Shown here piece by piece: positions 32,731 through 58,262 of a stretch of 64,000 nt of DNA. Source of the stretch: Chloroflexota bacterium (lineage in GTDB: Bacteria; Chloroflexota; Dehalococcoidia; UBA2979); contig VXOS01000142.1 in the NCBI GenBank assembly GCA_009839925.1, positions 3,039 to 67,038 of the forward strand, read 5' to 3'. Both the position numbers and the translations under genes were made by a program. The notes beneath the pieces are model-generated. The model ran no database searches, was not told the origin of the DNA, and worked only from the letters and a program-made list of their open reading frames with translations. The number at the start of each line of letters is the position of its first letter. Positions within the stretch are counted from its first letter, which is position 1.

Positions 32731-32808
32731 GGCCGGCCTTCGGGCCGGCGGTGTGGCCAGTGCTGCCCAGCGGTGTTGCGGAAGCGGTTACATCGCTGAT
32801 CCGGCAAT

Positions 32809-35800: not shown

Positions 35801-36660
35801 GGTTCGATCGCATCGGCGTGCCTCAGCAAGTTCTCGATGAAGTCCGGACGCTACTGTACGAAGTCACCCTGGGGAAGCGACCTCGAGCGACCCTCGCCAG
35901 GAACACCGACGGCTCGCCCGTGTTGCTCGAGGTTTCCGATCAGGAGTGGGCCGACCGCCAGGAGTTCGCCCGATCGCTTCTCGAGTTCGCCTCATCGTTC
36001 GAGACGATCGCGTCGTACCCCGTTCTCGATGTCGAACCGGATCACCTCGAAGCGCTTGCCGATCTAGTTACTCAGTCTGGTGTAGGGGCCCTCTACGCCG
36101 GCGATGAAGCCGCCCCCGAACGGCCGCTTCTCGTCTCGGACGATCTTGGGCTGGCCAATCTGACTCGCGCACTCGGGGGCGAGGCTGTGAACACACAGGC
36201 GGTGCTGCTGGAGCTGCACCGCGAGCGCATCCTGACGGACATGGAGTACTCCGGGCTCATCGCCCGCCTCGCTCAGTTGGGGTACCGGTTCGTCCGTCTG
36301 GACGCGGAGGACATCCTGCGGCTTCTGGAAGCCAACGGCTACATGACCGATGAGGCGACACGCGCATTGCTCGCGACAATCGAGGATCCGGAGTGCTCCA
36401 ACGAATCCGCGGTGTCTGTCACAGCCGAATTGATCGCGGCGCTGAGCGCACGGGGTCTTCCGCAACAGCAGGAGACGCTCCTCATCTCAGTGATTCTTGG
36501 GCATCTCCACGGCGGGCGCAGGACCACGCGGGCGCTGTACGAGTGCCTGTCCCAGCTCGAGATCAGGCTTGGACACGTTCCTACGGTGAGGGGGCGGGTC
36601 CTCGCTTCGGTGACCGACTACATTCGAATTGTGATGGGTGATCCGGATCTTGCGCTGTGA
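32809..36660 (+). CDS. Very large (1,283 aa) TPR-repeat protein with unknown N- and C-terminal domains
   Basis: Continuous ORF. Central region has repeated A/L-rich helical TPR-like units. C-terminal ~450 aa has Asp-containing blocks (SIVLDMVALL, PLLVSDDLGLANL) that could be PIN-like. Start codon uncertain. Confidence 0.6.
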   Translation: MGRDAPTSVLSACQWCSVDAILPADVLPLLIQLVPDGIRALRARDPDVVESAIVATSGVYPSIEIDAALRKWAETAGFDALIDRLEQGQRNVIDADVVRSFVEEGDFYLPDAEDRDDTAASVLSTLAHHLVDALLQSSGGLAVLANRIEKLSAESQEATTTHIDAGFAAIQDQQEQLLAVLQSSAAVALPGESDDEAAADPEYGNLAAQLESARELIASGKAASARPLLELLKGSAQDAPEDLQSRVLTSLGACALTRGDIEEGCTYLEEAHRLRPDKPEALANAAVAARLRGDSHRAIELAQRSLELKPQDAHAASVLAESLWTARESERLDELVVAENWMVDEPQCAVALAAIWTEQGRFDEAIGLSRRIAKREAEDYEARLVLAASLLTASQARQAADTVAWCREAECQATGALRLLEDKELPTQRLQALSIRAGARLLLGDHEGALSDIDAALRDVPDDSGALLNKGLVFLEAGRFPEARASFELITDPGLAARALVPHATACHWSGDAAAAAGLLRGQFSLNRGDWNDIHRAELLCEAEAALGGEDSVRSLLEQALEQRPGDPRLFAVVATRHELRGEYDAAEASLMQAVDLASEPDRHELVWRIANFHARRERYSDAADGYIEVVGGDASHTAALALLRSLQSSGRLREALSWARTIRESQHLPAKLVVETEAQVLNYVGDVSAAAERWADICSRPDATMLDETRLAQALLWSGEHDSATAAVRAIDASELRDHPRELLNLARLKHLLGEEGYLEDAYAALRYGPDDPSIHLGYFALCLNEEDDAPGPETVEPGYAVLLREGSEERWWRILEHGEERRSEHELLPTEDLARALVGRGRGDSVVLQEGIGALSAEVVDIQTKYVRAAQESTEAFSTRFPGNTDLTRVPVDVDDLSNIRSLVSQRDEFGREILKLYQADKVPFAFLCAKLGRPTPEIWRASTASGEIRIRIGDGTEIESARAAESLRRADSIVLDMVALLTMHALDLGECLRARFDRIGVPQQVLDEVRTLLYEVTLGKRPRATLARNTDGSPVLLEVSDQEWADRQEFARSLLEFASSFETIASYPVLDVEPDHLEALADLVTQSGVGALYAGDEAAPERPLLVSDDLGLANLTRALGGEAVNTQAVLLELHRERILTDMEYSGLIARLAQLGYRFVRLDAEDILRLLEANGYMTDEATRALLATIEDPECSNESAVSVTAELIAALSARGLPQQQETLLISVILGHLHGGRRTTRALYECLSQLEIRLGHVPTVRGRVLASVTDYIRIVMGDPDLAL

Positions 36661-36834: not shown

Positions 36835-37401
36835 TTAGCGGTGGTAGTCGGTGTGGCCGCGGCTCGCGGTCGGGCCCGTCTGGCCTTGGTACTTCGAGCG
36901 CAACTCGGGGGAGCCATACGGCCGCTCCGAGGGGGTCGTGAGTTCGAGGAAGGAGAGCTGGCCGATCTTCATTCCGTAGTAGAGCCGGATCGGCAGGTTC
37001 GCGACGTTCGAGAGCTCCATCGTCAGGTGACCGTCCCAACCCGAGTCGACGTATCCGGCTGTGCTGTGGATCAAAAGCCCTAGCCGGCCCAACGATGACT
37101 TGCCCTCGACTCGCGCGACGATGTCATCGCCGAGTGTCACGCGCTCAAGGGTGGAACCCAGCACGAATTCGCCCGGGTGCAAGACGAACGGTTCGTCGTC
37201 TCCGACCGTTTCCAGTTCGGTGAGATTCGCGGTCGATTCGCGCACGTCGATGTACGAGTCGCGGTGGTTGCGGAAGACGCGGAACTGGCGGTCGAGACGG
37301 ATGTCCACAGAGGCTGGCTGCAACGCGTCTTCGGCGAGCGGTTCGATGACGATCCTGCCCGATCCGAGCGCTTCGCGGATCGATCGGTCGGAGAGAACCA
37401 C
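36835..37401 (-). CDS. dcd: dCTP deaminase (canonical short form)
   Basis: 188 aa. [23 protein letters not shown] and [20 protein letters not shown] motifs. Confidence 0.85.
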
Positions 37402-40212: not shown

Positions 40213-40250
40213 AATTTCAATCCCGGCAACTGGCCTCACGATCGTTCCGA
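40213..40250 (+). repeat. 38-bp direct repeat, left copy (ATTTCAATCCCGGCAACTGGCCTCACGATCGTTCCGAC). CRISPR-repeat-like: GTTTCAATCC... at the 5' end and ...GTTGCGAC at the 3' end.
   Basis: Matches the 41230-41266 copy at about 32 of 38 positions. 1,017 bp apart, bracketing the HsdS fragment and the DUF433/DUF5615 cassette. Confidence 0.5.
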
Positions 40251-40257
40251 CGAATGA

Positions 40258-40532
40258 CCAAGGCAACTGGCCGACAAGAGCGTACTAGATTCAATCCCGC
40301 GGCTCACACCTCCAGTTCCAGAACAAACCGCCATCGTTCGTTACCTCGACCACGAGATCGCAGTCACCGCTACGGGCATTGACCGCCCGCGCCGCATGAT
40401 CGAGTTGCTCGGCGAGTATCGCACCCGCCTCGTCGCCGACATAGTCACTGTAAGATTGACGTACGCGAGGCGGCGTCGCGTCTGCCGGACGAGGAAGGCA
40501 GCGGCCGCGGTTACAAAGAGCCCGGTGAGTGA
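40258..40532 (+). pseudogene. hsdS: Type I restriction-modification specificity subunit (HsdS) C-terminal fragment, frameshifted
   Basis: Reads ...IPRLTPPVPEQTAIVRYLDHEIAVTATGIDRPRRMIELLGEYRTRLVADIVT, then after a 1-nt frameshift (G)KIDVREAA. This is the conserved HsdS C-terminal coiled-coil with the TGKIDVRE tail. No target-recognition domain or start codon. Confidence 0.45.
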
Positions 40533-40558: not shown

Positions 40559-40780
40559 ATGACAGATTGGGAGAGCTGCCCCGCGGTCGAGAATGTGCCT
40601 GGCAGGGTCAGTGGCGCCTCCGTCTTCTCAGGGACACGGGTGCCCGTCGCGGCTCTGTTCGAGAACTTGGCGAGCGGGGCCACGGTGGAGGAGTTCCTAG
40701 ACTGGTTCCCGGGCGTCGAGGAGTGGCAGGTGCGCGCCGTTCTCGAGCACGGGGCGAATTCCCTCCGTGTACCCGCCTAG
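40559..40780 (+). CDS. DUF433-family antitoxin-like protein
   Basis: Start MTDWESCP. SGTRVPVAALFENLASGATVEEFLDWFPGV matches the DUF433 fold. Confidence 0.7.
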   Translation: MTDWESCPAVENVPGRVSGASVFSGTRVPVAALFENLASGATVEEFLDWFPGVEEWQVRAVLEHGANSLRVPA

Positions 40781-40782
40781 TC

Positions 40783-41133
40783 GTGAGGATCCTGTTCGAT
40801 CAAGGCACGCCCGCTCCTCTCCGGCGACACCTGGGCGACCATGAGGTCGATACGGTGGCGGAGCTGGGGTGGTCGGAGTTGGCTAACGGTGACTTGATCG
40901 CGACGGCCGAGGACGAGGGCTACGACATCGTCATCACCACCGATCAGAGCATGCGCTACCAGCAGAACCTCACCGGCCGGCGGCTGGCGATCGTGGTATT
41001 GCTGTCCACCGCATGGCCGTACGTGCGCTTGCGGACCGAGGAGATTCGCGAGGCCCTCGCTCAGGTACGCCCGGCCGAGTTCAGGGAAGTCGCCATTCCC
41101 CACGCGGACGCATCATCTGATCCGCCGGGCTAG
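40783..41133 (+). CDS. DUF5615-family PIN-like (Mut7-C-like) putative toxin
   Basis: GTG start 3 nt after the DUF433 stop. VRILFDQGTP...GDLIATAEDEGYDIVITTDQSMRYQQNL...AIVVL matches DUF5615. DUF433+DUF5615 is a recurrent two-gene cassette. Confidence 0.7.
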   Translation: MRILFDQGTPAPLRRHLGDHEVDTVAELGWSELANGDLIATAEDEGYDIVITTDQSMRYQQNLTGRRLAIVVLLSTAWPYVRLRTEEIREALAQVRPAEFREVAIPHADASSDPPG

Positions 41134-41229: not shown

Positions 41230-41266
41230 GTTTCAATCCCCGCGGCCGCCTCACGATCGTTGCGAC
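41230..41266 (+). repeat. 37-bp direct repeat, right copy (GTTTCAATCCCCGCGGCCGCCTCACGATCGTTGCGAC)
   Basis: See the left copy at 40213-40250. Confidence 0.5.
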
Positions 41267-41301
41267 AACGATGTAGGCGGCGAACCCAGTCAACCCTGCG
41301 A

Positions 41302-41395
41302 GTTTCAATCCCGCGGCGAGCGGCCGCGCTACGGCGGGCAACATGCGCTGCTGAATGAGTTTCGACCCCGCACTTCTGCCCGCCCGCAGAAAGTT
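41302..41395 (+). repeat. Two further degenerate partial copies of the GTTTC(A/G)A(T/C)CCCGC... repeat (at 41302 and 41359). A shorter copy (GATTCAATCCCGCGGCTCAC) lies at 40288.
   Basis: Shared 5' core GTTTCAATCCCGCGGC. Unit spacing 72 and 57 bp downstream of the 41230 copy. Confidence 0.35.
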
Positions 41396-41636
41396 GGCAC
41401 ACTCACCGTGTCTGGCACCGATCCCGGTCCGCCCTGGTCCCGATCGCCACGTGCACCAAGAAGGGACCGACCATGTCCGGCACGTAGGCCGCGCCTTCTG
41501 GTTGCGGTCGTGGCGCAGGAGAGGGGATCCAGCGTCTGGGGGTGACCGGCTGGCAGCCAGACCGCAGCGCATCAAACGGGACGTAGTCCTCCTCGTCGGA
41601 GGCAGCGCGTGCCGCCCGGACCGCCGAGACGCAGGC

Positions 41637-42275
41637 TCAGGCGCCGGCGATGTCGAGCGGCCAGACCCTCACGACCTTGCCGTCCTCGACCTCGAAGCGC
41701 CATTCATCCCCCTCCCGACACTCGCCGTTCGGGCAAATGCCGAGGAACCGCATCTCTCGCTGGCGGCCGGACACGCCGCGCAGCTCCGCGACGGGCTCGT
41801 TCGTCTGGTAGGAGTGGACGTTGGAGCCCGTCTCGCCCATGAAGTAGACCTGGAACTCGCCCTGGTACTCGGTCCCGCAGTGCGGACAGGTCACGTCGGC
41901 GAGCAGCATCCAGTACTTCTCGAGCTCCGCGAGTTCGTGCTCCAGATCGACCTCGAGCACGCTGAAGCTCGTCTCGATCGCGTCGGCCGGCGGGTCGATC
42001 CCCTCCGCGGCCAGCCTGGCTTCCATCTCCCCGCGGAGGGGATCAGCCAGGATCCGGGCGTGCTCCACCATCGCGTCGGCGACGGAGCTCGTTGCGGGCG
42101 GAACGGGGTCGCCGTCATCCATCAGGGCCTCGATGTGGATGGCGATGGCCTCGCGCATCATGCGGTTCATGTCCTCCAGGTCGTCGCCCACGCTGATGCA
42201 GCCGGGGAGATCCGGGACATACCCGCAGTAGTTCTCATCACCGCGCTCGTACACGACCACGTACTGGACCTTCAT
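41637..42275 (-). CDS. HicB-family N-domain fused to a C-terminal Cys-rich (zinc-ribbon-like) domain
   Basis: Start MKVQYVVVYERGDENYCGYVPDLPGCISVGDDLEDMNRMMREAIAIHIEAL (HicB/UPF0150 fold). C-terminus has CPHCGTEY...CPNGEC. Divergent from the STAND gene. Confidence 0.6.
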   Translation of the reverse strand: MKVQYVVVYERGDENYCGYVPDLPGCISVGDDLEDMNRMMREAIAIHIEALMDDGDPVPPATSSVADAMVEHARILADPLRGEMEARLAAEGIDPPADAIETSFSVLEVDLEHELAELEKYWMLLADVTCPHCGTEYQGEFQVYFMGETGSNVHSYQTNEPVAELRGVSGRQREMRFLGICPNGECREGDEWRFEVEDGKVVRVWPLDIAGA

Positions 42276-42429
42276 CGGGATTCTCCCTTGCAGTCCAGCA
42301 TGCCCAGCACGTTGCTGTGCGCCCCTCGGACGCCGCATCATCGGGGTCGGCATCCTAGCAGTTCGCCTCGGGGCGGTGACATGATACGGTTCAAATGTTC
42401 TAGAGGGAGCCAGAAGTTCCGAGGGTAAA

Positions 42430-45400
42430 GTGACCAGGGCACGAACGAGAACGGCCGCCAGGCGATCCGGTGATGACTATCAGGATCTGGTGGCGGCGGA
42501 AGCCATGCTCCGCGTCCTCAGGCATCCGTCACGGTACCGCTGGGTCAAGCTTGAGGCCCGCGAAGCCGGCCGATTGGACGACGTCTTCGTCTATCGCATC
42601 GACGGTACCGTTGAGGCGACACAGGTCAAGTTCTCCACGGACGCTCTGCGCCCTGGCGATCCTTGGACGTGGGACAAACTCCTCGAGGAGACGAATGGCC
42701 GACCATCTCTGATCCGCGCTTGGTACGAGTCGGTTGTAGGCCTGGACCCCACACATCAGGCGACGGAGCCGCGGCTTGTCTCGAATCGACTTGGGGGAGA
42801 CGACCTACTGCTCACTGAGGACGGCTATGTCGACCGCAATCGCACCGCTCCTGTGGTCCTGGAGAGACTGCGCGCTCAGCTGGGTGACGGCAGCGATGAC
42901 TTCCTCCGACGGTTCCGCTTCGAGGTTGGAGAGCAAGACCTACGAGACTTGAACGATCGGCTCGCACGGGAATTCCGGGCCCTTGGGCTGCTTGAGCAGA
43001 ACTGGGTGGCTCTCAAGGACGCCATCAGAGGGTGGATCCGCGGTGAAGGATTGCCGGAGACGGGTGAAATCAGCACTGAGCACATCAGGTCAGCGTCCGG
43101 GTGGCGGCAACTCTCGCCGTTGCCGCAGGGCCTAGAGATCCCGCGCGACTACACACTTCCGCTCCAAGGGTTCCACGACGACTTCCTCAGCAGTGTCACG
43201 CAGGGCGCCGGATCTGCAATCGTCCTGACTGCAGGCCCCGGCATGGGGAAGAGCACTTACCTCAGTTACCTGGTTGAGAAGCTCCACGAACAAGAACAAC
43301 CAGTTGTCAGGCACCACTACTCGTTGCGGGCCAGCGGCGATCGCCCAGAACGCCTCGAGGCGAGGCGTGCAGCTGAGTCTCTCGTGGCAGACATCGAGAC
43401 TTGCCTAAGTCCTTACGTCCACGAACTTCCCACCCAGAATCCCGATCCTGGCGCGCTGCGAGCTTGGCTTGATGGCGTCGGGGCGCAGCTCGCCGATGAG
43501 GGCAAGTTCCTGGTGGTGGTGGTTGATGGCTTGGACCACGTGTGGCGGGCAAGGAACTCCCGTGAAGAGCTCCAGAAGTTGTTCGACCAACTCCTTCCAG
43601 CACCTCCGGGCATCGTGGTAGTCGTTGGCACGCAGCCGGTTGAGGATCAGCAGCTTCCGCCTTCGCTACTTCGATTCGCACCCAGAGAGCAGTGGATCGA
43701 GTTGCCCCGACTCGATAGGCAAGCCATCCGTGAGTGGTTGACTCATCATCGCGACCTCATGCCAGCGGAGTGGGCCCCGCGCGGCATGGGCTGGCACCAC
43801 GCAGAACTGGCAAGAGTGCTCCATGCTCGGACACGAGGCCATCCCCTCTTGATGCGCTACACCGTCGAGCAGGTCGCAAGCCGAGGCGAGAGCCTGACGA
43901 CGAACTCAATCCGTGTAATCCCCGAAGCGCCAGCGGGCACAGTCGAGGACTACTACCGAGCTCTTTGGGTGAGTCTCCCGGACGCGGCTAGAGACGTCGT
44001 CTTCCTGTTGGCCGTGGCGAGGTTTCCTTGGCCAGAAGGAGGTCTCCATGAGTGCCTCCGGCTTGTCGGCTATGAGCAGGCCAGCGCTTCGATGGCGGTC
44101 AGTGCGACCCGTCACCTTCTCGCCGACGACGGACTTGGATGGTCGCCCTTCCATAGCAGTCTTCTCCTGTACGCGGGGCAGCAGGCGGCGTTCGTGGAGC
44201 GCGAGCCCGCACTCCGCCAGGCGGCAATCGAATGGCTGGAAGGCGCGGCATCGGAGTACTGGCGAAGATCCCATCTCTGGCTTCTACAGCTCGATGCGGG
44301 CGATGCCGACCACCTGATGGCGGGTTCCGCTCGTGAGTGGGTCGTCGAGGCCGTTGCTGCCAGCCATCCGCTGGGCGAGATCGAAGATGTACTACGGGCA
44401 GCTGCCTTCGAGGCAATTGAGCAGGCAGACCTGACGACATACGTGGACCGGGGCATTCTGGCCGATACCGTGGACAGAAGCGCCAGCGACGAGGACGCGT
44501 TGCGGTGGATGTTCGCCGCGCAACTCTCGCTCGGGGCAGACGACTTCTTGGAGCCGCGAGCGATTGCGAGACTGAGCGAGCTGAGCGACCGGCACGTGAT
44601 CGCGTTGGCGCGGCATCTGCACCTTTCAGGGAGACCAGAGGCGGTCGAGAGGTGTTTCGATGAGCTTAAGCGGCGGCTTGCGCGAGAGGCCGCCGATCTT
44701 CGGTGGTTCGGGGAGCAACGAGAGCGGAGAGAGACCGTCGCTGAACTCGCTGGGCTTGCTGGAATCGAGCCCGAGAGGTTCGCGAGGTTTGCGGCCAGCC
44801 TTGGGTCCGAAGACATGCAGGCATCTCTGGCGACCAACTGGGTCGCGGGACTACGCCGCGCCCGCGAGGTCCGGTTCGCCCTTCGAGCCCTGGCCGAACC
44901 GCTCAGCGCCGCTGCCGCGCGCCGCCTATCCTGCCATGTGGCAATGGTTGGGGCTGACGAGGGGATCGCGCTGTCGGAGCCCGACTGCCAGTTGCTCGCT
45001 TCGCCCTACGCCTGGGTGTATCGCATGTTCCATGAAGGAGACCCCGGAGGGGTTGCGACAGAGGAGCCGCCCGCTCCAGCGGCTGGAAGAGACTACGCGT
45101 TCGAGCAGTATCCCGGAGTCGTTGCGCGATACGCGCATGACTTGTTCTTCTTCATCGTAGTCCGCGAGTTCCAGTCGCCTGGCTTTGCCGGCCGGTGGGC
45201 ACCGCCGGCAACTCTTCGCTCGTGGCTGACATCGTCGCTAGAAGCTCTCGCGCAGGGCGCAGTCGCGGTGGCGGAAGCCTGGAAGCACTCTCAGGAAGTC
45301 GATGTGGTTGCAGGCTACGAGGCCACCCGGCCGCTGAAGACCCCACCCTGGGACGACGGAATGGAGGACCGAGAAAGCTCAACGGGTATACGACGAGCGC

Positions 45401-46806
45401 TCCGCACAATCACCGAAGACCTTCTGGTCTTGCGGCGCGCAGCCGGGGGAAGCGCCGAGCTCCACTGGGAGGAAGTAGCGTCAGTCGCCTCTCACACATT
45501 CGCCGACCACGGACAGATCCTTCGGTGGGTTGCGGAAGGAACGGCTGACATCGATATCGGGGCGCTTCGCGGCCTCTCTAAGTCCGTCGACGATGAACTT
45601 GCCGGACGAATCGCGCCGTTCGACTCGAGGGCTAACACCTTCGCGCTTCTTGCTGCGGCATGCGCGCGCTATGGCCTGCGCCAGGATGCAGAACAACACC
45701 TGCGCCAGGCCGCAGAGAACCTTGTCGCGTACGGCTCTCACAAGGACATTCTGCTGCACTCGGCGCTGAACGCGATCGAAGCAGGGGCAGACCGGTTCGA
45801 CGGACGTCGGCAGCTTTGGATCGGGTTGGCGCCCGCGATCGCGGCCGTGCTTGAGTTCACGGACGGCGATGAAACTTCGCACTTGGCGGCGCGTTTCGGG
45901 GCGCTCCTGTTGCGCTTCGACGCGGACCTCGCGATCCGGTACATGAAGGCGCTCATGGATTCCGAGCGGTACCAAGATGTGGATGGGGTGTTACGTGATC
46001 TCGTGAGGAGCGCCGATCTAGCGAATCCCGAGCTGCGGGATCTCGTCAGCACGTGCATCGATCCCGACTCAATCCGGTTCCTCGAGGATCGGGCACGCAA
46101 CTCTGATCAGTCTGCAAGCGAGCTGCTGGAACTCAGCCCACGGTACTCCAGCAGCCTCGCAGAAGTGGACGCGGGGTCGGTGACAAGCACGACCGGCGAC
46201 GACATCGCCCGAGTAGCGTCCGACTCAGGCCGTGCTCATCGACATGTCGATTTCCCTCCCGAGCGGCTCGCCGACCTAGTCAGGTCAGAGGCGCTCGCTT
46301 GGCCCCTTGATCGAGAACGCGAGTTGTCGGCGTGGTTGGACAGTTGGGCGGACACGGAGCGAGCGGCCGACGCTCTCGACGCTGCCGAACTGTACTTCTT
46401 CGGGGATGACCGGCTGAGCGTAAGCAATCAGACAGTAGCCGCAGCGAGGCGGATCGGTGGGCGCAGCGGAAGTTATCGCTGGCTCGTGCGAGCCCAGCAA
46501 ACCAACAATGGCTGGCGCGAGTATTGGACCAGCTTCGAGGATGCCAAGGAGCGATGGCGCTGGGTAAAGCGAGACTTCCCGAGCCGTTGGCGCGACTTCC
46601 TCACCGAATCGCTACGGCCTCTACCGGGAGTCCAGCCTCACTTCGGCATGACGATCGCACGCATTGTTGAGTACCTCATCTACTTCGAACGCTGGCAGGA
46701 CGCCGCCGCCGTCACGTCGCAACTCGTCGCCACACTTCGTGATCAGGTGTCAGGTCAAGCGCTCCCGATGCCAGACTGGGCTGAGCACTCGGCGGAGAGC
46801 ACATGA
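42430..46806 (+). CDS. STAND/NACHT-like P-loop NTPase (Avs-like antiviral STAND candidate) with N-terminal Cap4/DUF4297-like PD-(D/E)xK nuclease domain and C-terminal helical-repeat region
   Basis: 1,458 aa. N-terminus DDYQDLVAAEAMLRVL...E...DDVFVYRIDGTVEATQVKFS fits the DUF4297/Cap4 nuclease signature (YQ...E...DDV...QVK). Walker A LTAGPGMGKST. Walker B FLVVVVDGLDHV. About 1,000 aa of alpha-helical repeats follow. Lower GC than the core genome. Confidence 0.7.
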   Translation: MTRARTRTAARRSGDDYQDLVAAEAMLRVLRHPSRYRWVKLEAREAGRLDDVFVYRIDGTVEATQVKFSTDALRPGDPWTWDKLLEETNGRPSLIRAWYESVVGLDPTHQATEPRLVSNRLGGDDLLLTEDGYVDRNRTAPVVLERLRAQLGDGSDDFLRRFRFEVGEQDLRDLNDRLAREFRALGLLEQNWVALKDAIRGWIRGEGLPETGEISTEHIRSASGWRQLSPLPQGLEIPRDYTLPLQGFHDDFLSSVTQGAGSAIVLTAGPGMGKSTYLSYLVEKLHEQEQPVVRHHYSLRASGDRPERLEARRAAESLVADIETCLSPYVHELPTQNPDPGALRAWLDGVGAQLADEGKFLVVVVDGLDHVWRARNSREELQKLFDQLLPAPPGIVVVVGTQPVEDQQLPPSLLRFAPREQWIELPRLDRQAIREWLTHHRDLMPAEWAPRGMGWHHAELARVLHARTRGHPLLMRYTVEQVASRGESLTTNSIRVIPEAPAGTVEDYYRALWVSLPDAARDVVFLLAVARFPWPEGGLHECLRLVGYEQASASMAVSATRHLLADDGLGWSPFHSSLLLYAGQQAAFVEREPALRQAAIEWLEGAASEYWRRSHLWLLQLDAGDADHLMAGSAREWVVEAVAASHPLGEIEDVLRAAAFEAIEQADLTTYVDRGILADTVDRSASDEDALRWMFAAQLSLGADDFLEPRAIARLSELSDRHVIALARHLHLSGRPEAVERCFDELKRRLAREAADLRWFGEQRERRETVAELAGLAGIEPERFARFAASLGSEDMQASLATNWVAGLRRAREVRFALRALAEPLSAAAARRLSCHVAMVGADEGIALSEPDCQLLASPYAWVYRMFHEGDPGGVATEEPPAPAAGRDYAFEQYPGVVARYAHDLFFFIVVREFQSPGFAGRWAPPATLRSWLTSSLEALAQGAVAVAEAWKHSQEVDVVAGYEATRPLKTPPWDDGMEDRESSTGIRRALRTITEDLLVLRRAAGGSAELHWEEVASVASHTFADHGQILRWVAEGTADIDIGALRGLSKSVDDELAGRIAPFDSRANTFALLAAACARYGLRQDAEQHLRQAAENLVAYGSHKDILLHSALNAIEAGADRFDGRRQLWIGLAPAIAAVLEFTDGDETSHLAARFGALLLRFDADLAIRYMKALMDSERYQDVDGVLRDLVRSADLANPELRDLVSTCIDPDSIRFLEDRARNSDQSASELLELSPRYSSSLAEVDAGSVTSTTGDDIARVASDSGRAHRHVDFPPERLADLVRSEALAWPLDRERELSAWLDSWADTERAADALDAAELYFFGDDRLSVSNQTVAAARRIGGRSGSYRWLVRAQQTNNGWREYWTSFEDAKERWRWVKRDFPSRWRDFLTESLRPLPGVQPHFGMTIARIVEYLIYFERWQDAAAVTSQLVATLRDQVSGQALPMPDWAEHSAEST

Positions 46807-48263
46807 TCGAACTGCTTGTTGACCGCCTGCGATGGCCAGCCCCGCTCGTTCGCGAACGTGCGGCATCGCAGCTCGGCGACCGTATAGCGGCCGGCGACGA
46901 TGGGGCCGTTCAAGCGCTGCTCGTCTGGATCGCCGACCAAGAGCTCGAGAGTCTCGCAGCGATCGGCCTGCTTCCGTTCCTACACGCAGCGGGGAGGGCG
47001 GACGCAAACTCGCCGTCAACAAGTAGGATCGCTTCGGCCGTTAGGGCCCGCTCCGTCTTGTCGGAGCTGTACCTCGGTCACCTCGACCCCTCCTACACGA
47101 GTAACCCGAGCCTCGGTCGGCACTCTGGATTGCCGCCCAGTTCGTGGGTGCCCCCAAGGACGAGTGCCGGCGCCCGAGAGGTATTCTTCGAAGAGATGAT
47201 CCGGGAACGCTTGGAGAGGGCCGCCCGGGTCTTCCAGGCACCTCTGGAAAGGCAGTTTGATTTTGAACTCTCGGTCTTGAGTGGCCGCCACGGCGAGTCG
47301 CCCGCGAGCGCTTACAGTGCAGCTGGACCCTACGAGAGTGGCTACCACCCCGGCTGGCGGCCTATCTCTGCGGAAACCCGCACTTCGGCATACCTGCGCG
47401 CCCTAGCGTGGGCAGCCTCGCACACGAGCGCGCCCGCGGATTGGCTCCTCGGCGCTGCAGCCAAGGTCTCCCCGGCCGATCTAGGCCTCTGGGGCGTGAG
47501 GCCGACTAAGGCTCCAGGCTGGTGGCCAAGCCTCGACACCCACGGCGACGCAAACGAGATCGATTCCGAAGTCGCGACAACGCTACGCAAGGTGAACGCG
47601 GCCGTGCAGGCGTGGCGGTCTGACGGCCACGCAGTACTCGCAGCGAGCGGATGCATCTCTCACACGAACCGCACGCAACATGATCTGGAAATCCGCGCGT
47701 TCTTCCAACGGACTGATGGGCCAAGCCGGCCGGGGAGCGAGCAACTGTTCGAGTACCTCAAATCAGTCCGATCGCCGTTTAGGCAGCGGCCGTCGCCGCT
47801 GCGGTTCGAAGGAGCGATCGGCGCGAATGGAGGTGCACAGGAACTCGCCGACTGGGTTGTAGTGCCTTGCTCGGGCTCGACCGGACCTCTCGCATTCATT
47901 GTCTGGCAGGGATGGCGTGGGCTTCGCGGCTTCCAATGCCCGTCGCCGGAATTGGTAGATGCAGAGATCCGAGCGATTTGCCGGCAGGACTCGGTCGACT
48001 ACGAGTGCGCCGGGGAACTCGTAGCCCAATGGACCGATTGGTCGGGGAGCCTCTCCGCGACCGCGGTGAGGGATCTCCTGCCTGCAAGTGGATGGGTTCT
48101 CGTCGCGCCTCAGGCCGTTGTCGACAGGTTCACGAGTGAAACTGGTATGGCGCTGGCCTGGGCGTGGGAGGTCACGAGTCGCTTCCGTGACTACGCCCAT
48201 GGAGAGTTCATAGTGCACCGGGCGCACGGCGATCATGGCACGACCATGGTAATCCGACCGTGA
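46803..48263 (+). CDS. Hypothetical 486-aa protein translationally coupled (ATGA overlap) to the STAND NTPase
   Basis: Start ATG overlaps the STAND stop. No recognisable motif. Non-repetitive composition. Confidence 0.5.
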   Translation: MIELLVDRLRWPAPLVRERAASQLGDRIAAGDDGAVQALLVWIADQELESLAAIGLLPFLHAAGRADANSPSTSRIASAVRARSVLSELYLGHLDPSYTSNPSLGRHSGLPPSSWVPPRTSAGAREVFFEEMIRERLERAARVFQAPLERQFDFELSVLSGRHGESPASAYSAAGPYESGYHPGWRPISAETRTSAYLRALAWAASHTSAPADWLLGAAAKVSPADLGLWGVRPTKAPGWWPSLDTHGDANEIDSEVATTLRKVNAAVQAWRSDGHAVLAASGCISHTNRTQHDLEIRAFFQRTDGPSRPGSEQLFEYLKSVRSPFRQRPSPLRFEGAIGANGGAQELADWVVVPCSGSTGPLAFIVWQGWRGLRGFQCPSPELVDAEIRAICRQDSVDYECAGELVAQWTDWSGSLSATAVRDLLPASGWVLVAPQAVVDRFTSETGMALAWAWEVTSRFRDYAHGEFIVHRAHGDHGTTMVIRP

Positions 48264-48388: not shown

Positions 48389-51300
48389 CTAAGCTAGGCC
48401 GTCCGAGCAGACGATGCGGATCACCTCAGGCTCCGGCGGCCGGGCCGTCTCGGAATCGTCGGGGACGCTGAGGCGGTAGCGCTCGCGCAGGGCCTCGAGG
48501 CGGATGCGCAGCACTCGGCCCTCGAGCTGCAAGCTCCGAATCTCGCCGAGGGCGTTCTCGGCCGGCGGGGGCAGGTCGCCGTTGAAGATTCGACGGAGCA
48601 CTTCGAGACGCCGCATCTCAGCCGGGTCGTCGGCGGCGGCATGGACGGCAAGGTTGAGCTGCCGGGACATGTAGCGCCGAGCCCTCGTGTTGCGCGGCCG
48701 GCGGGCCCGGCCCAGCCGTTGCCCGAACTCCGTCCTGAACGCTTCGAACGCCGCCATCACGCGCTCGTTCGTGTCCTCCGAGAGCGCCTCCGCTGGCGTG
48801 TCGGGGGTGCACTCGGCGGCCGCGACAAACTGGGCGGGGCTGATGGGCCGGGGCTCGAGACCCGACCCCACGGCGTAGCAGCCATGCACCTCGCCGGCGC
48901 CGAGGAGCACCAGCGTCTCGCCGGGCACCGGGTCATCGAAGGCCGCCGGGGGCGCGGCCCGGATGTTCGCCGGCGACATTAGCGGAGCCTGCGCGCCCTC
49001 GAGAGGCATCACATCCTGCACGTAGATGTCGTCAGGGGCGTCCTCGCGCGCTGGCCTCGGCGCCCGCACGGCGAGAGCAGACCGGATGCCATCCGGCAGG
49101 GATGTGATGGTCTCCCAGAGCTCCGGGTTGTCTTCGCGGATCCGCTGGAGCAGGGCGACGGCGCGCTGGTGCGCGGCCACCTCGTCGAGCCCGTCGTCGG
49201 CCTCCGGCATGCGCTGCTCGCCGTAGATGCGGTACATCGCGTCGGCGTTCAGGCGCTCGGCCTCCGACAGGAGCCTGTTGTCGAGGCCGATCAAGTCGTG
49301 GAACGACTGGATACGGCGGCCCAGCCGCTCGGTCAGCTCCAGCCCCTCATCGACCGCGGTGTCCGGCCACATGCTGTGCAGGTCGATGACGTCGTGCTCT
49401 GTCCCGATGCGATCGACGCGGCCGAAGCGCTGGATCAGCCGCACGGGGTTCCAGTGGAGGTCGTAGTTCAGGACCCGCGCGCAGTCCTGCAGGTTCTGGC
49501 CCTCCGACACGATATCCGTGGCCAGCAGCACGCGGATCTCAAGGCCGGGAACCTGGCGCCCAGTGGTCAGGTTCGCGCGCGGCGAGAACCGGGTCACGAT
49601 GGTCTCGGCGTTGTCGCGGTTGCCGCCACTGAGGTGAGCGATCTCCGGGTCGTGGCCGCCGGGATTCAACTGCTCGTAGAGGTAGTCGATGGTCGTCTCG
49701 GCCTCGGAGAAGATGAGCACCTTGTCGGCACGGACCGCGGGCTGGTCGAGGAACTCCCGGAGCGCTCGGAGCTTGTCGTCGTCGTCCGGAGCGATGTCCG
49801 CTATCCGCTCGAAGAGGCCACCGAGCACCTCGTAGTCCGCGTCGAGATCGGCGATCCAGCGTTCGGTTTCGAAGTGCGCGGCAGGATACGCCGCACTGCG
49901 GGCGTGGCCGCGCGCCTCCTCCTGCTGGAGGACTTCCAGCAGTTCGTCGGCGTCGAACTCGTGACCCGCCAGGAGGCGGGTTGCCGTAGCGCCGACGGGC
50001 ACGAATCCGGCTTCCAGCGACTCCCGGAAGTTCCGGTTGCTATTGATGAGCGTTTCGAGCGTGGACCGGAACGCCGCGACGCTCGACTCGAGCCGCTTCA
50101 GGAGCAGCACCTTCATCAGGCCGGCGATCCGGTCCCTCGCGCGCAGCAGCCCTCGGTATTCGGCCCGCGTCTTGAAGTCGTCGCCCAGGTACTCGGAGGC
50201 GCGATACCGCGAGGCCTCGTGTTGTGCCAGCGCCTCCGTGATCTCCTGGAACTCCCCGGCCCGGGCGTACACGCGGTCAAGCCGGTAGTGGACATTCTCG
50301 AGCACTGGATCCGGGAAGCGCACGGGCTGGCCCCCGACCATCGCGGTATCGCCGTAGAGGTCGAGGATGTCGCGTCGCCGGCGGCGGATGAACAAGGGCG
50401 ACAGCACCTGCGTGATGTCGGCTCGCGGCACTGTTGGTTGTGATGGTGGCACCGGCGGCGTGCGTGTGGGGCGCTCTCGCTCCCAGGCCTCGTACTCGGC
50501 CTCGTAGTTGGTCTTTGCCGCGTGGTAGTCGAGCCAGCGTTCCGCGTTCCGGAAATACTCCTGCAGGTCGAGGGGCTCGATCGGCAGGCCGTGACTGGTG
50601 TCGTCCAGGAACAGGCTGAGCTGGCGGTAGATGTCCAGCGGGCCGAGGTTCTGGGGCGTGGCGCTGAGCAGCACCACCTTGTGGTCGCCGGACTCAAGGT
50701 ACTCCTCCAGGCCCGCGTAGCGCTGGTTTCGATTGCGGAAGTTGTGCGCCTCGTCCACCAGCACGGGGCCCCGGTCTGGGTACATCTGATTGAGGACGAC
50801 GCCTCGCTCGGGGGGCGCCGCGTCGATGTAGCGGCCGAGCTCCTCGTCGAACTCAGCCTCACCGGACGGGGCGATCATGCTGTGCGAGATCACCTCGGCG
50901 CCCAGCTGGAAGCGCTCGTTGAACGACTCCCACATCGGCTTCAGGCCGGCAGGGCAGAGGATGAGCGGGCGGCCGTCGTTCGGATAGCTGAACTGGAGCT
51001 GGCGCAGCAGCTCTGCGCCGATGAAGGTCTTGCCGAGCCCCACGACGTCGCCGATGTAGCAGCCGCCGTGGACATCGATCATCGCCAGACCGCGGCGTAC
51101 CGCGTCCAGCTGGAAGTTGGCCAGCTCACCGTCCTGCGGCTCGAGCGGTAGCTCGCTCGCCCCGGCGCCGCCGCTGTAGAGCTCGTGGAGGGCCTTCAGG
51201 TAGACGTGGTAGGGCGGCGTCTTCGCAAGCGCCCAGGAGAGCTCCAGCGTGACCTGCAACTCCTCGCTGATGTCCTCCGAGTCCTCCCAGAGGGCGTCGA

Positions 51301-51880
51301 ACCAGTCGCGCAGGGCGGCCATCTCAGCGTCGCCGGTGACCCGCACGTTGAGCTCGGTGTTGCCGCTGAAGCCGGCCAGCGTGAGGTTCGAGGAGCCGAC
51401 GACAGCCGAGCCGGGCTCGGCGTGGTCGTCGTACCAGCAGAGGTATGCCTTGGCGTGCAGCGGGCTGCGCCGGTAGGCCCGGACTTCCGCCTTGCCCGAG
51501 GCGACCATGTCCCGGAGCAGGCTCACCGCGTTCTGGGCGTCCTCCGTCTGCGGCAAGAGGGACACCCCGTCAGCGATGCGGTCGACGGAGTCCCGCGCCA
51601 CCGCGGCGCGCTCGCGCCGCTGCACAAGCCCATCGGAGTGCAGCCGCGCCCGCAGCGCGTCCGGCTGCTGTAGCCCCGCAGCGACCGCCTCGATCACCTG
51701 CCGGTCGGCACGGCCGACGAGGATGCGCACCTTGTCCAGCCGCGCCAGTTCTTCGCTGACCGCGCCGAAGCCAGACATGAAGAAGTAGCCGACGGCGATG
51801 TCGGCCCGGGCCGAACTACCGAGCATCTCCTGCAGCCGGGTCAGCAGGTCAGGGTCAGTGAAGGCGTGGAGGATGTTCAA
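48389..51880 (-). CDS. Phospholipase-D-family nuclease domain fused to SNF2/SF2 helicase (candidate ATP-dependent restriction or defence nuclease-helicase)
   Basis: 1,163 aa. N-terminal HKD motif PLHAKAYLC...VVGSSNLTLAG. Helicase motif I DVVGLGKT, motif II VLVDEAHNFRN, motif VI QRFGRVDRIG. Confidence 0.8.
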   Translation of the reverse strand: MNILHAFTDPDLLTRLQEMLGSSARADIAVGYFFMSGFGAVSEELARLDKVRILVGRADRQVIEAVAAGLQQPDALRARLHSDGLVQRRERAAVARDSVDRIADGVSLLPQTEDAQNAVSLLRDMVASGKAEVRAYRRSPLHAKAYLCWYDDHAEPGSAVVGSSNLTLAGFSGNTELNVRVTGDAEMAALRDWFDALWEDSEDISEELQVTLELSWALAKTPPYHVYLKALHELYSGGAGASELPLEPQDGELANFQLDAVRRGLAMIDVHGGCYIGDVVGLGKTFIGAELLRQLQFSYPNDGRPLILCPAGLKPMWESFNERFQLGAEVISHSMIAPSGEAEFDEELGRYIDAAPPERGVVLNQMYPDRGPVLVDEAHNFRNRNQRYAGLEEYLESGDHKVVLLSATPQNLGPLDIYRQLSLFLDDTSHGLPIEPLDLQEYFRNAERWLDYHAAKTNYEAEYEAWERERPTRTPPVPPSQPTVPRADITQVLSPLFIRRRRRDILDLYGDTAMVGGQPVRFPDPVLENVHYRLDRVYARAGEFQEITEALAQHEASRYRASEYLGDDFKTRAEYRGLLRARDRIAGLMKVLLLKRLESSVAAFRSTLETLINSNRNFRESLEAGFVPVGATATRLLAGHEFDADELLEVLQQEEARGHARSAAYPAAHFETERWIADLDADYEVLGGLFERIADIAPDDDDKLRALREFLDQPAVRADKVLIFSEAETTIDYLYEQLNPGGHDPEIAHLSGGNRDNAETIVTRFSPRANLTTGRQVPGLEIRVLLATDIVSEGQNLQDCARVLNYDLHWNPVRLIQRFGRVDRIGTEHDVIDLHSMWPDTAVDEGLELTERLGRRIQSFHDLIGLDNRLLSEAERLNADAMYRIYGEQRMPEADDGLDEVAAHQRAVALLQRIREDNPELWETITSLPDGIRSALAVRAPRPAREDAPDDIYVQDVMPLEGAQAPLMSPANIRAAPPAAFDDPVPGETLVLLGAGEVHGCYAVGSGLEPRPISPAQFVAAAECTPDTPAEALSEDTNERVMAAFEAFRTEFGQRLGRARRPRNTRARRYMSRQLNLAVHAAADDPAEMRRLEVLRRIFNGDLPPPAENALGEIRSLQLEGRVLRIRLEALRERYRLSVPDDSETARPPEPEVIRIVCSDGLA

Positions 51881-52563: not shown

Positions 52564-54750
52564 TCACGTGGGCGTACCGGGTCGGCGCTGTCGTTCTCTG
52601 GCGCTGCCGTCGATCCAGTCGTCGAGGGCCATCCGCTGTAGATCGCTGGGGACGAGATCTCCACCCTGAATCGCAGCGTTGAGTCGCCGACCTAGTGTCT
52701 TACCCGATTTGGTTCGGACACTCTCACTCACGGTGCGAGCCAACACGGACGTGTCGCTGACCGCCTCGAGAAAACCCGCTACGGGCCAATCCCGCTGCCC
52801 GAATGCCTCGACGAGTGCTCTTCTCAGGACTTGCCCTCTTCCGACCCCACCGCGACGGATGAGTCTCCGCAATGACCGCGGCGACCTTGGGAAGGCGCGT
52901 TTCAGCTTGTTCCAGTCATCATTACTGAGTCGACCTGCCTCGGCGGCGTCGTGGACGGTCTGGAAGACTTGGGCTACGAGGTGGCTCGCGGACGGGCGCT
53001 CATCGCCGAACCCAACGCCGAGTGCAAATGCACGAACCGAGGTCCCTGCAGCGGTGGAAGGGTCAGTTTGGTTGACGATCTCGCTCCAACGCTTGTTCTC
53101 AAGAGCACGGAGCCGCCGATCCCCCGGAGGGAACTGCTCGAGGACGAGCTTGGCGAGCGCTGTAGATGGCATCTCGCTCCTGCCAAGCCACAAAATGCCT
53201 CGCTTAGGATGTGTGCGCAGGGTTGCTGCCCATTCGGGACGCGCCGGCAGAACCTCCTCCTGATCCACGCGTTCCCCCAGCACGTCGAAGGCAGCTTCGA
53301 TCGCACGGCTCCCCAGTTCGCCAGCGAGGTCACTTAAGGCAACGGACGGCCCCGCAGCGATCACGGCACGCACTATCGCGACGATCTGAGAGTCATCCAA
53401 GTCAGCTCCACGGAGCCAGGCAAGAGCACGGGGCTTAGCGTTGTCCGATCTCCAGAGTGTCGGGTCCGCGACAATCGAAGGCCTGAGATCGAGTGCGCTC
53501 GACGTGACCACATCTGGCCACGACCCAAGGAGCTCAACAAACGTCTCGGTTTCGAGATCTTCGGCCGCGAGCCGCACGAGCGCATTGCGCGCATCCGCTG
53601 TCGCGAACGTTGGGAACTCTCGCAGGAACACCCGCAACTCTGGTTCATCGACTGACATCGCTTGCAGGAACGCGCTGCTCAGGGAGCGCCACCATCCGGG
53701 GAAGGCAGATCCGGCCGCCGAGCGCGACAGGACGGAGAGCCGATCCAGACTTGTGAGCGGTTCAGTGAGGCTCGATCCGGATTCGTCGAGTGCCCAAGAC
53801 TTCAATGCCTCGGCGGCCGCCCGTCGCGGATACCACGCACCGACCCTCTCCAGCAGCGACTGCCAATCAGTGCGATCCGACAGGCCCCGAGCGATCGAGT
53901 GAAGTTCTGCTACACGCCCGAACGACAACCGGTCGGGGGCAAGTCGCGGTCCGAATTGCCACGCGAAGTTCCTCAGCTCGCGCAAGGCGGCGGCATCTGG
54001 TCGAAGACCGGTGGCCCATGTAGCTGAGTGTGAGTGAGCGCGGTGCCCAGCACCCAGGAGGATCACCTCCTGAGCGGCGAGCCGCTCGATCGTCGTTGAG
54101 CGATCTTGAGGGATGACCTGTAGATCGAAGGGGCGGCCAGCGACTTGGCGGAAGGATAGAGCTCCAGTGCAGAACGAGAAGTGCTCGCGGAGCTCAGGCC
54201 ACTGAATGGACCAGACATCAAGCAGGACTTCCTCGTAGTCAGCGGCGGATGCCGCCGGCAGGAGAATCGCGTGATTCGCACTGTCGCTCTGGTACAGAGC
54301 TCCGATGATATCGGCTAGACGGATGTTGTTGTCAGTCGACTGCGAGCGTGTAGGCGGATGTGGAGGCTCAGCGATATCGTGTTCATCGATCTCAAGCGGG
54401 CTCCCGTACTCAATCGCCTGATCGACGGATCGCGGCCTCCGGAACCAATCCGCCAGACTCGCTACATTCGGCAGCGCGATCTGCTCAGGCGTGAGAAGCA
54501 ACGTATGGGTCCACACCGAACCCGGCCTTGCGCCACCGTCCGCCAACCACGTCCGCGCAAACGCGTAGAGGCGTTCGCCCGGCACCGGGTATCCCGATAT
54601 GTAGCTCTCGAACCCGCGAGTCCTAGAGGCCGACCCGGAGAGATCAGACAGCTCGAGGAGGGCTCGCTCCCCCTCCCTGGATAGCCGACGAGAACTCGCC
54701 AATAGGTCGTGCCCGCTGCGGTACCCATGGAGGGCTTGAGCGACTCGCAT
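52564..54750 (-). CDS. Large (729 aa) hypothetical protein, last gene of the tandem-GTPase operon
   Basis: Start MRVAQALHGYRSGHDLL chosen 22 nt after the GTPase stop (alternatives 54789 or 54822). Mostly alpha-helical, Leu/Ala/Arg-rich. No known motif. Confidence 0.5.
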   Translation of the reverse strand: MRVAQALHGYRSGHDLLASSRRLSREGERALLELSDLSGSASRTRGFESYISGYPVPGERLYAFARTWLADGGARPGSVWTHTLLLTPEQIALPNVASLADWFRRPRSVDQAIEYGSPLEIDEHDIAEPPHPPTRSQSTDNNIRLADIIGALYQSDSANHAILLPAASAADYEEVLLDVWSIQWPELREHFSFCTGALSFRQVAGRPFDLQVIPQDRSTTIERLAAQEVILLGAGHRAHSHSATWATGLRPDAAALRELRNFAWQFGPRLAPDRLSFGRVAELHSIARGLSDRTDWQSLLERVGAWYPRRAAAEALKSWALDESGSSLTEPLTSLDRLSVLSRSAAGSAFPGWWRSLSSAFLQAMSVDEPELRVFLREFPTFATADARNALVRLAAEDLETETFVELLGSWPDVVTSSALDLRPSIVADPTLWRSDNAKPRALAWLRGADLDDSQIVAIVRAVIAAGPSVALSDLAGELGSRAIEAAFDVLGERVDQEEVLPARPEWAATLRTHPKRGILWLGRSEMPSTALAKLVLEQFPPGDRRLRALENKRWSEIVNQTDPSTAAGTSVRAFALGVGFGDERPSASHLVAQVFQTVHDAAEAGRLSNDDWNKLKRAFPRSPRSLRRLIRRGGVGRGQVLRRALVEAFGQRDWPVAGFLEAVSDTSVLARTVSESVRTKSGKTLGRRLNAAIQGGDLVPSDLQRMALDDWIDGSARERQRRPGTPT

Positions 54751-54772
54751 CGCCTCGCCACCGCGACTGGTA

Positions 54773-55633
54773 TCACCCCGTATCGACATCGACGACCCAC
54801 CGGAGGGGCTCGGTAATGTCATGCGATTCTGCGTTCGCGTCGCGCGCGACGCGTATCCGCTCAGAAGCGCTGAGGAGGGACTTGAGGCGATCGCTGTCCT
54901 GAGGGAGCTCACCGCCCTGCGCGGAGACTCCGTAAACGCGAACATCAAAGCGCGAGTGGTCGTGGCTTCTCAGGAACTGATCAACCAGTGGGAGCTCCTT
55001 GGCCAACCACTCTGACGGGGTGCCTTGTTCTTCCACCAGATCCCACGCAGACACGATCACGGCGAGCCTGAAGTGTCCCGCCGCAATCTCCGTGCAAAGA
55101 AGCTGGAGTAGGTCGACGAGCTGCACGTCCGTCGGTACTTGCTCAGCGCTCCATTCACTCTCGGTTGGCGCGTCCGCCGCGCCAGATTCCTGAGATGGCA
55201 GTGCTTCCTCGCCCGCGATCTCCATTGCGTCGAGAATCGGCCATGGCTCGCTTGTCTCCTTCGGGTGAACGAAGAGCAACACGCCCGTGGAATCGTGCAC
55301 GTAGTCCCGGAAGCTAGTTGGCCATTGGCGATCCGCAAGGCTCCGCTTGATTGATTCGCCGGCGAGGTCGGGTACGACGATCTCAGTGATGGAGTCCGCG
55401 TCGCTGGGCTTGATTCTGATCGTGGCAATCTGCTCGGCGTCGATACTCGTTCGGTTGGCCACCTCGAACCGTAGCCAGCGACCCGTCAGGTCGTTCAGGT
55501 GGTCCACGGGCGCCTCCAGAACTTCTAGCTCGAGGGCGCCATCAACATCCCGGCTAACGATGACTTGCCACAAGGCTGCGAGGAACGTCGTCTTGCCGGA
55601 TGACGGCAGACCGACGAGCAACGCTTGGTGCAT
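54773..55633 (-). CDS. TRAFAC-class P-loop GTPase (GTPase 2 of tandem pair)
   Basis: 286 aa. G1 GLPSSGKTT, G3 VPDLAGES, degenerate G4 VSAWD. Start shares 1 nt with the upstream stop (TGATG). Confidence 0.7.
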   Translation of the reverse strand: MHQALLVGLPSSGKTTFLAALWQVIVSRDVDGALELEVLEAPVDHLNDLTGRWLRFEVANRTSIDAEQIATIRIKPSDADSITEIVVPDLAGESIKRSLADRQWPTSFRDYVHDSTGVLLFVHPKETSEPWPILDAMEIAGEEALPSQESGAADAPTESEWSAEQVPTDVQLVDLLQLLCTEIAAGHFRLAVIVSAWDLVEEQGTPSEWLAKELPLVDQFLRSHDHSRFDVRVYGVSAQGGELPQDSDRLKSLLSASERIRVARDANAESHDITEPLRWVVDVDTG

Positions 55634-56529: not shown

Positions 56530-56541
56530 GTCCTGCCCCAG

Positions 56542-57654: not shown

Positions 57655-58262
57655 CAGGTTGCTGCTCCAAGTCCATCCGGCGGTCGGTCGGGGATACCCT
57701 TGCTCTCTTGAGCCGTCTCGCTCCAGAGCTCCGCGAGCCGATTAGCTGCGCGGGCTCGCTCGAAGACCGCACGCGCAAAGCCCTTGCGAGAAAGAGCGTC
57801 GTCTCCCTCATGGAAGAGGTCAAGACGGACTGCGATGGCGCGACGTGTCGTGCTCGGCAGTGCCAGGAAAGCGTAGGCAAGCCTCGTCCGGGGCGGGGCG
57901 GCCTCAAGCTGCTCCTGCAAACTCTGGATCGCATCCTCTAGCGCTGCGCACACGCGCTCTGCCGATTCTGCAACGACGGCAGCAACACTAGGCGAGACGC
58001 TTCGGCCGTGGGCTACGGGGTCCGTCGCTCCGAGCACGTCGCGAATCGCGCGCACAGTCTTCGTGTCAAAGCCACTCTGAGACTTCAGCACGTTGAGGGC
58101 GGACTCGGATGATCCGAGGCGATGCCTATCGGGAGCGAGGTAGCTCGCCAACCACTCGAGGCGTGCCTCAATCGCCCTCCGAGCGAGGACCAGAGCCACC
58201 TCCGGCTGGTCGTCCAGTTCCAGATCTCGGAGTTGGAATGAGGGGAGCTGCGGTCTAACCAT
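57654..58262 (-). CDS. Hypothetical ~202-aa protein (GTPase-operon component)
   Basis: Start MVRPQLPS overlaps the upstream membrane-protein stop by 8 nt. A longer alternative start lies at 58346. Confidence 0.45.
   Translation of the reverse strand: MVRPQLPSFQLRDLELDDQPEVALVLARRAIEARLEWLASYLAPDRHRLGSSESALNVLKSQSGFDTKTVRAIRDVLGATDPVAHGRSVSPSVAAVVAESAERVCAALEDAIQSLQEQLEAAPPRTRLAYAFLALPSTTRRAIAVRLDLFHEGDDALSRKGFARAVFERARAANRLAELWSETAQESKGIPDRPPDGLGAAT

Follow-up and report, generated by a model that had tools for sequence, protein, structure and literature searches.

A two-gene Avs-type system with a probable detached sensor lobe in a Chloroflexota defence island

A 64,000-nucleotide stretch of a Chloroflexota genome (assembly GCA_009839925.1, contig VXOS01000142.1, positions 3,039 to 67,038; hereafter the window) carries two overlapping genes, a STAND nucleoside triphosphatase (NTPase) gene with a nuclease head (gene 1) and a 486-codon partner (gene 2), that probably constitute a two-gene Avs system within a horizontally acquired defence island, gene 2 being the detached C-terminal sensor lobe of the receptor. 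The Avs receptors of bacteria correspond to NLRs and are regarded as pattern-recognition proteins made of a single chain. The best-supported reading of the window locus, drawn by analogy with characterized members, would be an abortive-infection nuclease of Avs1/Avs3-like type, with its sensor divided between two polypeptides. It builds on the domain identities of gene 1, the strict linkage of the two genes, the fusion of the partner to the receptor in many relatives, and the predicted fold of the partner.

A STAND nuclease gene and its coupled partner

Gene 1 (42430..46806, 1,458 amino acids, GTG start; MYB42507.1 at NCBI) and gene 2 (46803..48263, 486 amino acids, ATG start; MYB42508.1) lie on the plus strand, as do all features within them. 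The stop codon of gene 1 overlaps the start codon of gene 2 in the tetranucleotide ATGA at 46803..46806, and translation of the two genes is predicted to be coupled; a GGAGAG motif stands upstream of the gene 2 ATG. An NCBI protein 100% identical to the gene 1 product exists, yet MYB42507.1 is annotated from the GTG at 42490 and, with 1,438 amino acids, is 20 codons shorter than the 42430 reading frame. The omitted codons encode the family-invariant residues T6, R12, G14 and D16-Y17-Q18-D19, and because of these residues, together with a GAGGG motif 5 nucleotides upstream, the GTG at 42430 is the preferred start. A three-gene operon including a plus-strand frame of 357 amino acids at 41355-42428 was considered and rejected: this frame is a high-GC antisense shadow of a minus-strand HicB-like gene, and the unit therefore comprises two genes, not three.

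The first 240 residues of gene 1 (42430..43149) form a predicted Cap4-type PD-(D/E)xK (D...QxK) double-stranded DNA nuclease effector domain, assigned from PADLOC models, from Pfam matches in homologues and from alignment with SeAvs7. Residues 6-132 match the PADLOC models SAVED_PDDEXK effector (3.5e-18), Effector/Endonuclease (1e-15) and LmuA (2e-6), and Pfam Cap4_nuclease (PF14130) matches 11 of 13 gene 1 orthologues, with a best value of 5e-7. The head contains the motifs G14-D-D16-Y17-Q18-D19, E42, D50-D51-V52 and Q65-V66-K67-F-S69. Across the alignment of the 13 orthologues G14, D16-Y17-Q18-D19, E42, D50-D51, Q65 and V66 are invariant and K67 is conserved in at least 90%; the columns of the catalytic motifs are likewise at least 90% conserved among 64 homologues. 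A family profile of the domain also retrieves the Cap4 domain of SeAvs7 (9n00_A, E 0.0016), with the motifs in register.

The nuclease is followed by a STAND (NACHT-like) NTPase module at residues 241-600 (43150..44229), recognized by Pfam, PADLOC and NCBIfam. Its Walker A motif, G269-PGMGKST276 (residues 269-276, 43234-43257), and its Walker B motif, VVVVD366-GLDH370 (residues 361-371, 43510-43542), are invariant in the family, as are the GHPL motif (470-473) and the winged-helix residue His575. Two Pfam models exceed their cut-offs here, NPHP3_N at 31.3 bits and NACHT at 28.3 bits, and residues 246-596 match Avs1b in both PADLOC (6.5e-17) and NCBIfam (1.2e-15), the sole Avs hidden Markov model (HMM) matched by this NTPase. 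The module is also 34% identical to ECC9552481.1 from Salmonella enterica subsp. salamae, a STAND seed in the census of Lee et al. (2026); the clade of the window NTPase is thus already represented in that census. The seed itself was not found in the PDB, and a large-database search with it gave only fragments. The remaining 858 residues (601-1458, 44230..46803) form an all-helical TPR-like sensor arm, modelled as all-helical by AlphaFold2 with a predicted local distance difference test score (pLDDT) of 88.

Gene 1 thus has the tripartite Avs layout of effector, STAND NTPase whose Walker A and B motifs are intact, and repeat sensor of 858 residues, to which the 486-residue module is added. These results uphold a preliminary description made from the DNA letters, which had proposed a Cap4/DUF4297-type nuclease head, an Avs-like STAND NTPase, and the effector-NTPase-sensor layout of antiviral STAND proteins. 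The PADLOC Cap4-type models and the (nearly) invariant E, DD and QxK residues, aligned to the Cap4 domain of SeAvs7, bear out the first. The NPHP3_N, NACHT and Avs1b matches agree with the second, and all three parts of the third are present; the motifs quoted for the nuclease and for Walker A and B are all found in the translation. Its estimate of about 1,000 residues of helical repeats was right in kind but too long by comparison with the 858 residues of the arm.

The gene 2 product has no match in Pfam, PADLOC, NCBIfam or the PDB sequences, whether searched as a single sequence or as a 37-sequence profile, in keeping with the earlier remark that it has no detectable motif. Its family is nonetheless large: a word index gives 83 matches, and searching exhaustively with a profile yields 716 clusters (50% identity). 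A tblastn search of plasmids with the window's gene 2 product found none, whereas the gene 2 profile reveals copies on pMOL28 and on a Klebsiella plasmid that tblastn had missed. Altogether the pair family, with at least 716 clusters, spans Chloroflexota, Bacillota, Acidobacteriota, Deinococcota, candidate phyla radiation (CPR) bacteria and proteobacterial plasmids.

Linkage to the STAND gene is strict. Gene 2 lies directly downstream of it in 17 of 17 distinct split loci, drawn from Chloroflexota, Paenibacillus, Acidobacteriota and the Cupriavidus plasmid pMOL28, over STAND identities that fall from 96% to about 29%. In 16 fetched loci (13 of them distinct; 30-96% identity), a STAND frame of 1,453-1,478 amino acids ends exactly 4 nucleotides past the partner start. 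The pair also occurs in Paenibacillus sp. SYP-B4298 and P. xylanexedens, on a Joint Genome Institute (JGI) metagenome contig, in a Pyrinomonadaceae metagenome-assembled genome and, with the same 4-nucleotide overlap, on plasmid pMOL28 of Cupriavidus metallidurans CH34 (WP_011514896.1 and WP_011514895.1); in the Paenibacillus pairs the overlap is 8 nucleotides. The overlap of the gene 1 stop with the gene 2 ATG, put forward in the preliminary description, holds, and the conservation of the partner, a test set by that description, came out in its favour, the partner being present at every homologue locus examined. Flanking genes vary from locus to locus and are typically defence genes.

Some partner frames have been called short, at 466 amino acids in L021 (10557-11957), 300 in L024 (10378-11895) and 360 in P0062, although at least L024 retains an intact frame of about 490 amino acids. 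Gene callers frequently shorten the partner or overlook it, and the pair is therefore under-annotated in public records.

The partner as a probable C-terminal sensor module

In many relatives the two genes are one. These proteins are 1,920-2,014 amino acids long, and STAND homologues of 1,960-2,014 carry the gene 2 module as their C-terminal ~500 residues with no linker; the gene 2 product aligns to residues 1505-2010 of one of them (P0187), which is a single uninterrupted reading frame in independent assemblies, and to residues 1509-2010 of another (P0194). The Klebsiella plasmid homologue (WP_234262172.1) is fused as well (1,922 amino acids). Among the best 150 cluster representatives, about 25 are 1,926-2,006 amino acids long, always with the module at the extreme C-terminus, and a further 16 or so resemble pieces of fused proteins cut short at the N-terminus, in which the module is again C-terminal. 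In most family members the module is a separate polypeptide. The nearest relative of each fused protein is of split length, as with P0194 (2,011 amino acids) and P0193 (1,499 amino acids), which are 63% identical; the exception is the mutually closest pair P0185/P0187. Fused proteins are scattered among split ones, and fusion or fission has therefore occurred repeatedly.

The predicted fold of the module also points to an Avs receptor. AlphaFold2 models the gene 2 product with high confidence (pLDDT 90, predicted template modelling score 0.89) as a HEAT-like helical half (residues 1-270) and a beta-rich half (276-480). A Foldseek search with this model returned a single significant structure, SeAvs3 (8dgc_B and 8dgc_A; E 6e-8 and 2e-7, probability 1.00, TMq 0.5), the next match having an E value of 0.06; by two methods, SeAvs3 is the only specific PDB fold match, at 11-13% identity. 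SeAvs3 of Salmonella enterica (PDB 8DGC) is a 2,028-residue Cap4-STAND-TPR receptor that binds the phage large terminase. From colinearity and the fused relatives we infer that the gene 2 module corresponds to its C-terminal region, where, within the last ~500 residues, Y1714 and the H1770 loop contact terminase-bound ATP (bioRxiv 10.64898/2026.08.25.746987). The preliminary description had treated the 486-residue protein as an unknown partner in a variant architecture. A conserved, linked variant it is, but not an accessory: it is better regarded as a C-terminal receptor module, fused in many relatives and with a predicted fold that matches part of SeAvs3.

By analogy with SeAvs3 and SeAvs7, the products of genes 1 and 2 would form a single receptor that is held auto-inhibited with ADP bound. 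The helical arm and the C-terminal module would then clamp a conserved phage protein, for which the large terminase is the likeliest candidate; ADP would be exchanged for ATP, the NTPase would tetramerise, and the Cap4 domains would converge to make the nuclease active, so that DNA is degraded and the infection aborted.

The identity of the trigger is the part of this scheme with the strongest competitor. The same architecture could respond to another conserved phage protein, such as the portal, the capsid or a replication protein, with the module merely sharing an ancestral sensor fold with SeAvs3, and this is quite possible, though short of probable. Avs sensors fall into at least 90 families that recognise a wide variety of phage proteins (PMC13581612), the arm of gene 1 has no specific likeness to SeAvs3, and the identity of the module to it is low. 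Against this, the sole specific structural relative of the module is a terminase sensor, and the nearest HMM of the NTPase, Avs1b, belongs to a terminase-activated system (PMC12799240). The large terminase is retained as the favoured candidate, by analogy.

A second possibility concerns the partner itself, which might be a separately acting regulatory subunit, an inhibitor keeping the STAND nuclease inactive, or an adaptor, that is released or replaced on infection and lies outside the sensing surface. Its existence as a separate polypeptide in most family members would suit such a role, as would its faster divergence in the closest comparison: between the window and its closest relative (L001, 10001-11458), gene 2 is 88% identical and gene 1 96%, with residues 101-300 of gene 2 at 80-83%. 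Either recombination of the module or its faster evolution could account for this lower identity. The gene 2 product and the helical arm have similar rates of evolution, both above those of the nuclease and NTPase, which is what sensing surfaces would be expected to show. Repeated linkerless fusion to the C-terminus of the STAND protein is hard to square with a releasable inhibitor, the matching module of SeAvs3 is integral to a single-chain receptor, and 1:1 translational coupling is conserved; a regulatory subunit is therefore considered unlikely.

The two remaining alternatives are effectively excluded. STAND NTPases with helical repeats also serve as transcription regulators, and a housekeeping signal-transduction protein of the MalT/AfsR/LuxR type would share this outline; however, no DNA-binding helix-turn-helix (HTH) or regulator domain was found in gene 1 with Pfam or NCBIfam, the N-terminus is a Cap4 nuclease, and defence-island settings in unrelated genomes, atypical base composition at third codon positions and plasmid carriage all speak for an immune receptor. 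Least credible of all is an artefactual split, by a frameshift or sequencing error, of one gene of about 1,950 codons: fused relatives exist and the window comes from a metagenome-assembled genome, but the same stop/start overlap recurs in 16 of 16 fetched loci of 30-96% identity, and cultured strains with finished genomes have it too (Paenibacillus CP115484.1; C. metallidurans CH34, pMOL28); gene 2 has its own ATG with an upstream GGAG.

Several points weigh against a two-gene Avs receptor with a detached lobe. Searches of the PDB with phmmer and with profiles found no sequence-level similarity to SeAvs3 in any part of the two proteins, and the fold searches do not give the SeAvs3 residues to which the gene 2 model aligns. 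The Cap4 domain of the window itself scores 14.5 bits, compared with a Pfam gathering cut-off of 26.2, and in one orthologue (L016, 5586-6335) the catalytic Lys of QxK is replaced by Arg (QVRYS). The Avs1b match covers the NTPase only and reaches 55.8 bits, compared with the 1,500-bit family cut-off of the NCBIfam equivalog NF041810. Finally, the assembly of the two proteins, the trigger and the nuclease activity are drawn from analogy with SeAvs3 and SeAvs7.

Known relatives and genomic setting

With SeAvs3 the locus shares a Cap4 nuclease effector, and the gene 2 model has its only specific fold match there; its NTPase and sensor have no sequence homology to 8DGC in phmmer and profile searches. 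Without sequence similarity, and with an arm that is not specifically SeAvs3-like, it is not filed under Avs3. SeAvs7 (PDB 9N00), a capsid-sensing Cap4-STAND-TPR receptor, is close in other respects: the Cap4 motifs GDxYQ, E, DDV and QxK align, the tripartite layout is the same, and gene 1 (1,458 residues) is of similar size to SeAvs7 (1,523 residues). In contrast, the gene 2 model has no match to 9N00 in either PDB fold search, and SeAvs7 is a single gene that uses host EF-Tu as a co-factor, whereas the window locus has two genes.

The Avs1 system offers a different comparison. EpiAvs1 is activated by terminase and uses a protease and an upstream metallo-β-lactamase (MBL) pro-nuclease, Avs1a (PMC12799240). 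In EpiAvs1a-Avs1b the extra gene lies upstream and Avs1b has a trypsin-like protease, whereas in the window the extra gene is downstream and sensor-like and the effector is a fused Cap4 nuclease; the upstream neighbour of gene 1 is an opposite-strand HicB-like gene, not Avs1a. Membership of the Avs1b equivalog was rejected on these effectors and on the NTPase-only score given above, and fused and proteobacterial relatives, at 19-51 bits, are likewise far under the cut-off. The predicted structure of Avs1 is reported to resemble Avs3 strongly, and a "split-TPR variant" of Avs1 is mentioned in one phrase (Evans et al., bioRxiv 10.64898/2026.04.30.721860). The window locus may be this variant.

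The nuclease fold and motifs at the N-terminus are also those of CBASS Cap4 and Lamassu LmuA, both of which carry Cap4/DUF4297 domains. Unlike CBASS Cap4, the window locus has neither a SAVED domain nor a CD-NTase; the PADLOC SAVED_PDDEXK match is limited to the nuclease part (profile positions 8-134 of 483), and no CD-NTase was found in the window neighbourhood. Unlike Lamassu, it has no LmuB/SMC partner. Activation would here occur through STAND oligomerisation, rather than through a nucleotide signal as in CBASS or an SMC complex as in Lamassu.

The gene pair sits in a low-GC defence island of at least 33 kb, its neighbours in the window including a type IIG restriction-modification (R-M) enzyme, an HKD-Snf2 helicase, a GTPase conflict system, a TPR-PIN protein and HicB. 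Relatives elsewhere adjoin Thoeris, type ISP R-M, HEPN/MNT and AbiE genes, and the pair family is carried on plasmids. The locus has a GC content of about 0.62-0.655 and kb 1-31 of the window one of about 0.72, and GC at third codon positions (GC3) is 0.70-0.71 in genes 1 and 2, compared with 0.90-0.99 in core genes. The preliminary description was right that the locus is poorer in GC than its ~0.72 flank, but its figure of about 60% was too low and the property is not specific to the locus, as the low-GC zone begins at about 31 kb and continues to the window's end.

Divergent from gene 1 lies the HicB-like antitoxin gene (238 amino acids; 41637-42353, minus strand), and convergent with gene 2 is a gene for an HKD/PLD + Snf2 helicase (48389-51880, minus strand; PADLOC C3a139 5e-51, DrmD-like). 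The latter neighbour is shared with the closest genome (L001, 11680-15312) and not with more distant loci. An MmeI-like type IIG R-M enzyme is encoded at 61279-63978 on the minus strand (PADLOC 2.8e-136), and a related enzyme is also found near the pair in L001. Between these two minus-strand genes lies a four-gene GTPase-centred conflict system (52564-58346, minus strand) with GAP1-N1, DO-GTPase2, GASH and GAAD domains; the GAP1-N1 and DO-GTPase2 proteins, the two of the four that were scanned, have no match in PADLOC 2.0. A link to Upx was rejected, as neither the window pair nor the Pyrinomonadaceae pair has a Upx-like gene beside it.

The start of the low-GC island is marked by a CoiA_N-domain reading frame followed by a gene for a 1,283-residue TPR protein with a PIN-TPR-GreABC domain (31537-36660, plus strand), a predicted conflict system. 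A two-domain DCD (dCTP-deaminase-like) protein is encoded at the island border (30142-31140, plus strand) and a short one inside it (36835-37401, minus strand), which could be a nucleotide-depleting defence gene. Two degenerate CRISPR-repeat-like pairs (GTTTCAATCCCCGCGGCCGCCTCACGATCGTTGCGAC, 72-nucleotide period) at 40214-40303 and 41230-41332 flank a DUF5615 (PIN-like) reading frame at 40567-41133. Rfam CRISPR-DR9 gives these pairs only 20.4 bits (E 0.35), and they may be array remnants or a repeat-derived mobile element.

Significance of a divided sensor

The pair represents a known kind of system in a variant architecture. It is widespread, is missing from present HMM libraries and holds no conceptual surprise. 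Because the gene 2 module lacks a model in Pfam, NCBIfam and PADLOC and is frequently miscalled, defence finders will score these loci as a lone "ATP-binding protein". Gene 1 cloned alone would probably give an inactive system.

The split may also have been adaptive, with the 486-residue module serving as a swappable subunit for specificity whose evolution, and perhaps recombination, is uncoupled from that of the nuclease-NTPase chassis. The 88% and 96% identities and the repeated fusion or fission are compatible with such an arrangement and no proof of it, and it is regarded as rather improbable. Were it true, a lineage could retarget or broaden its recognition of phage proteins while leaving the executioner untouched, and the pair would parallel, in prokaryotes, the paired sensor/helper NLRs. 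In this family the sensor is usually divided over two coupled polypeptides and has several times been re-fused, which makes it a natural system for studying sensor assembly and useful for asking which lobe carries specificity and whether specificity modules swap.

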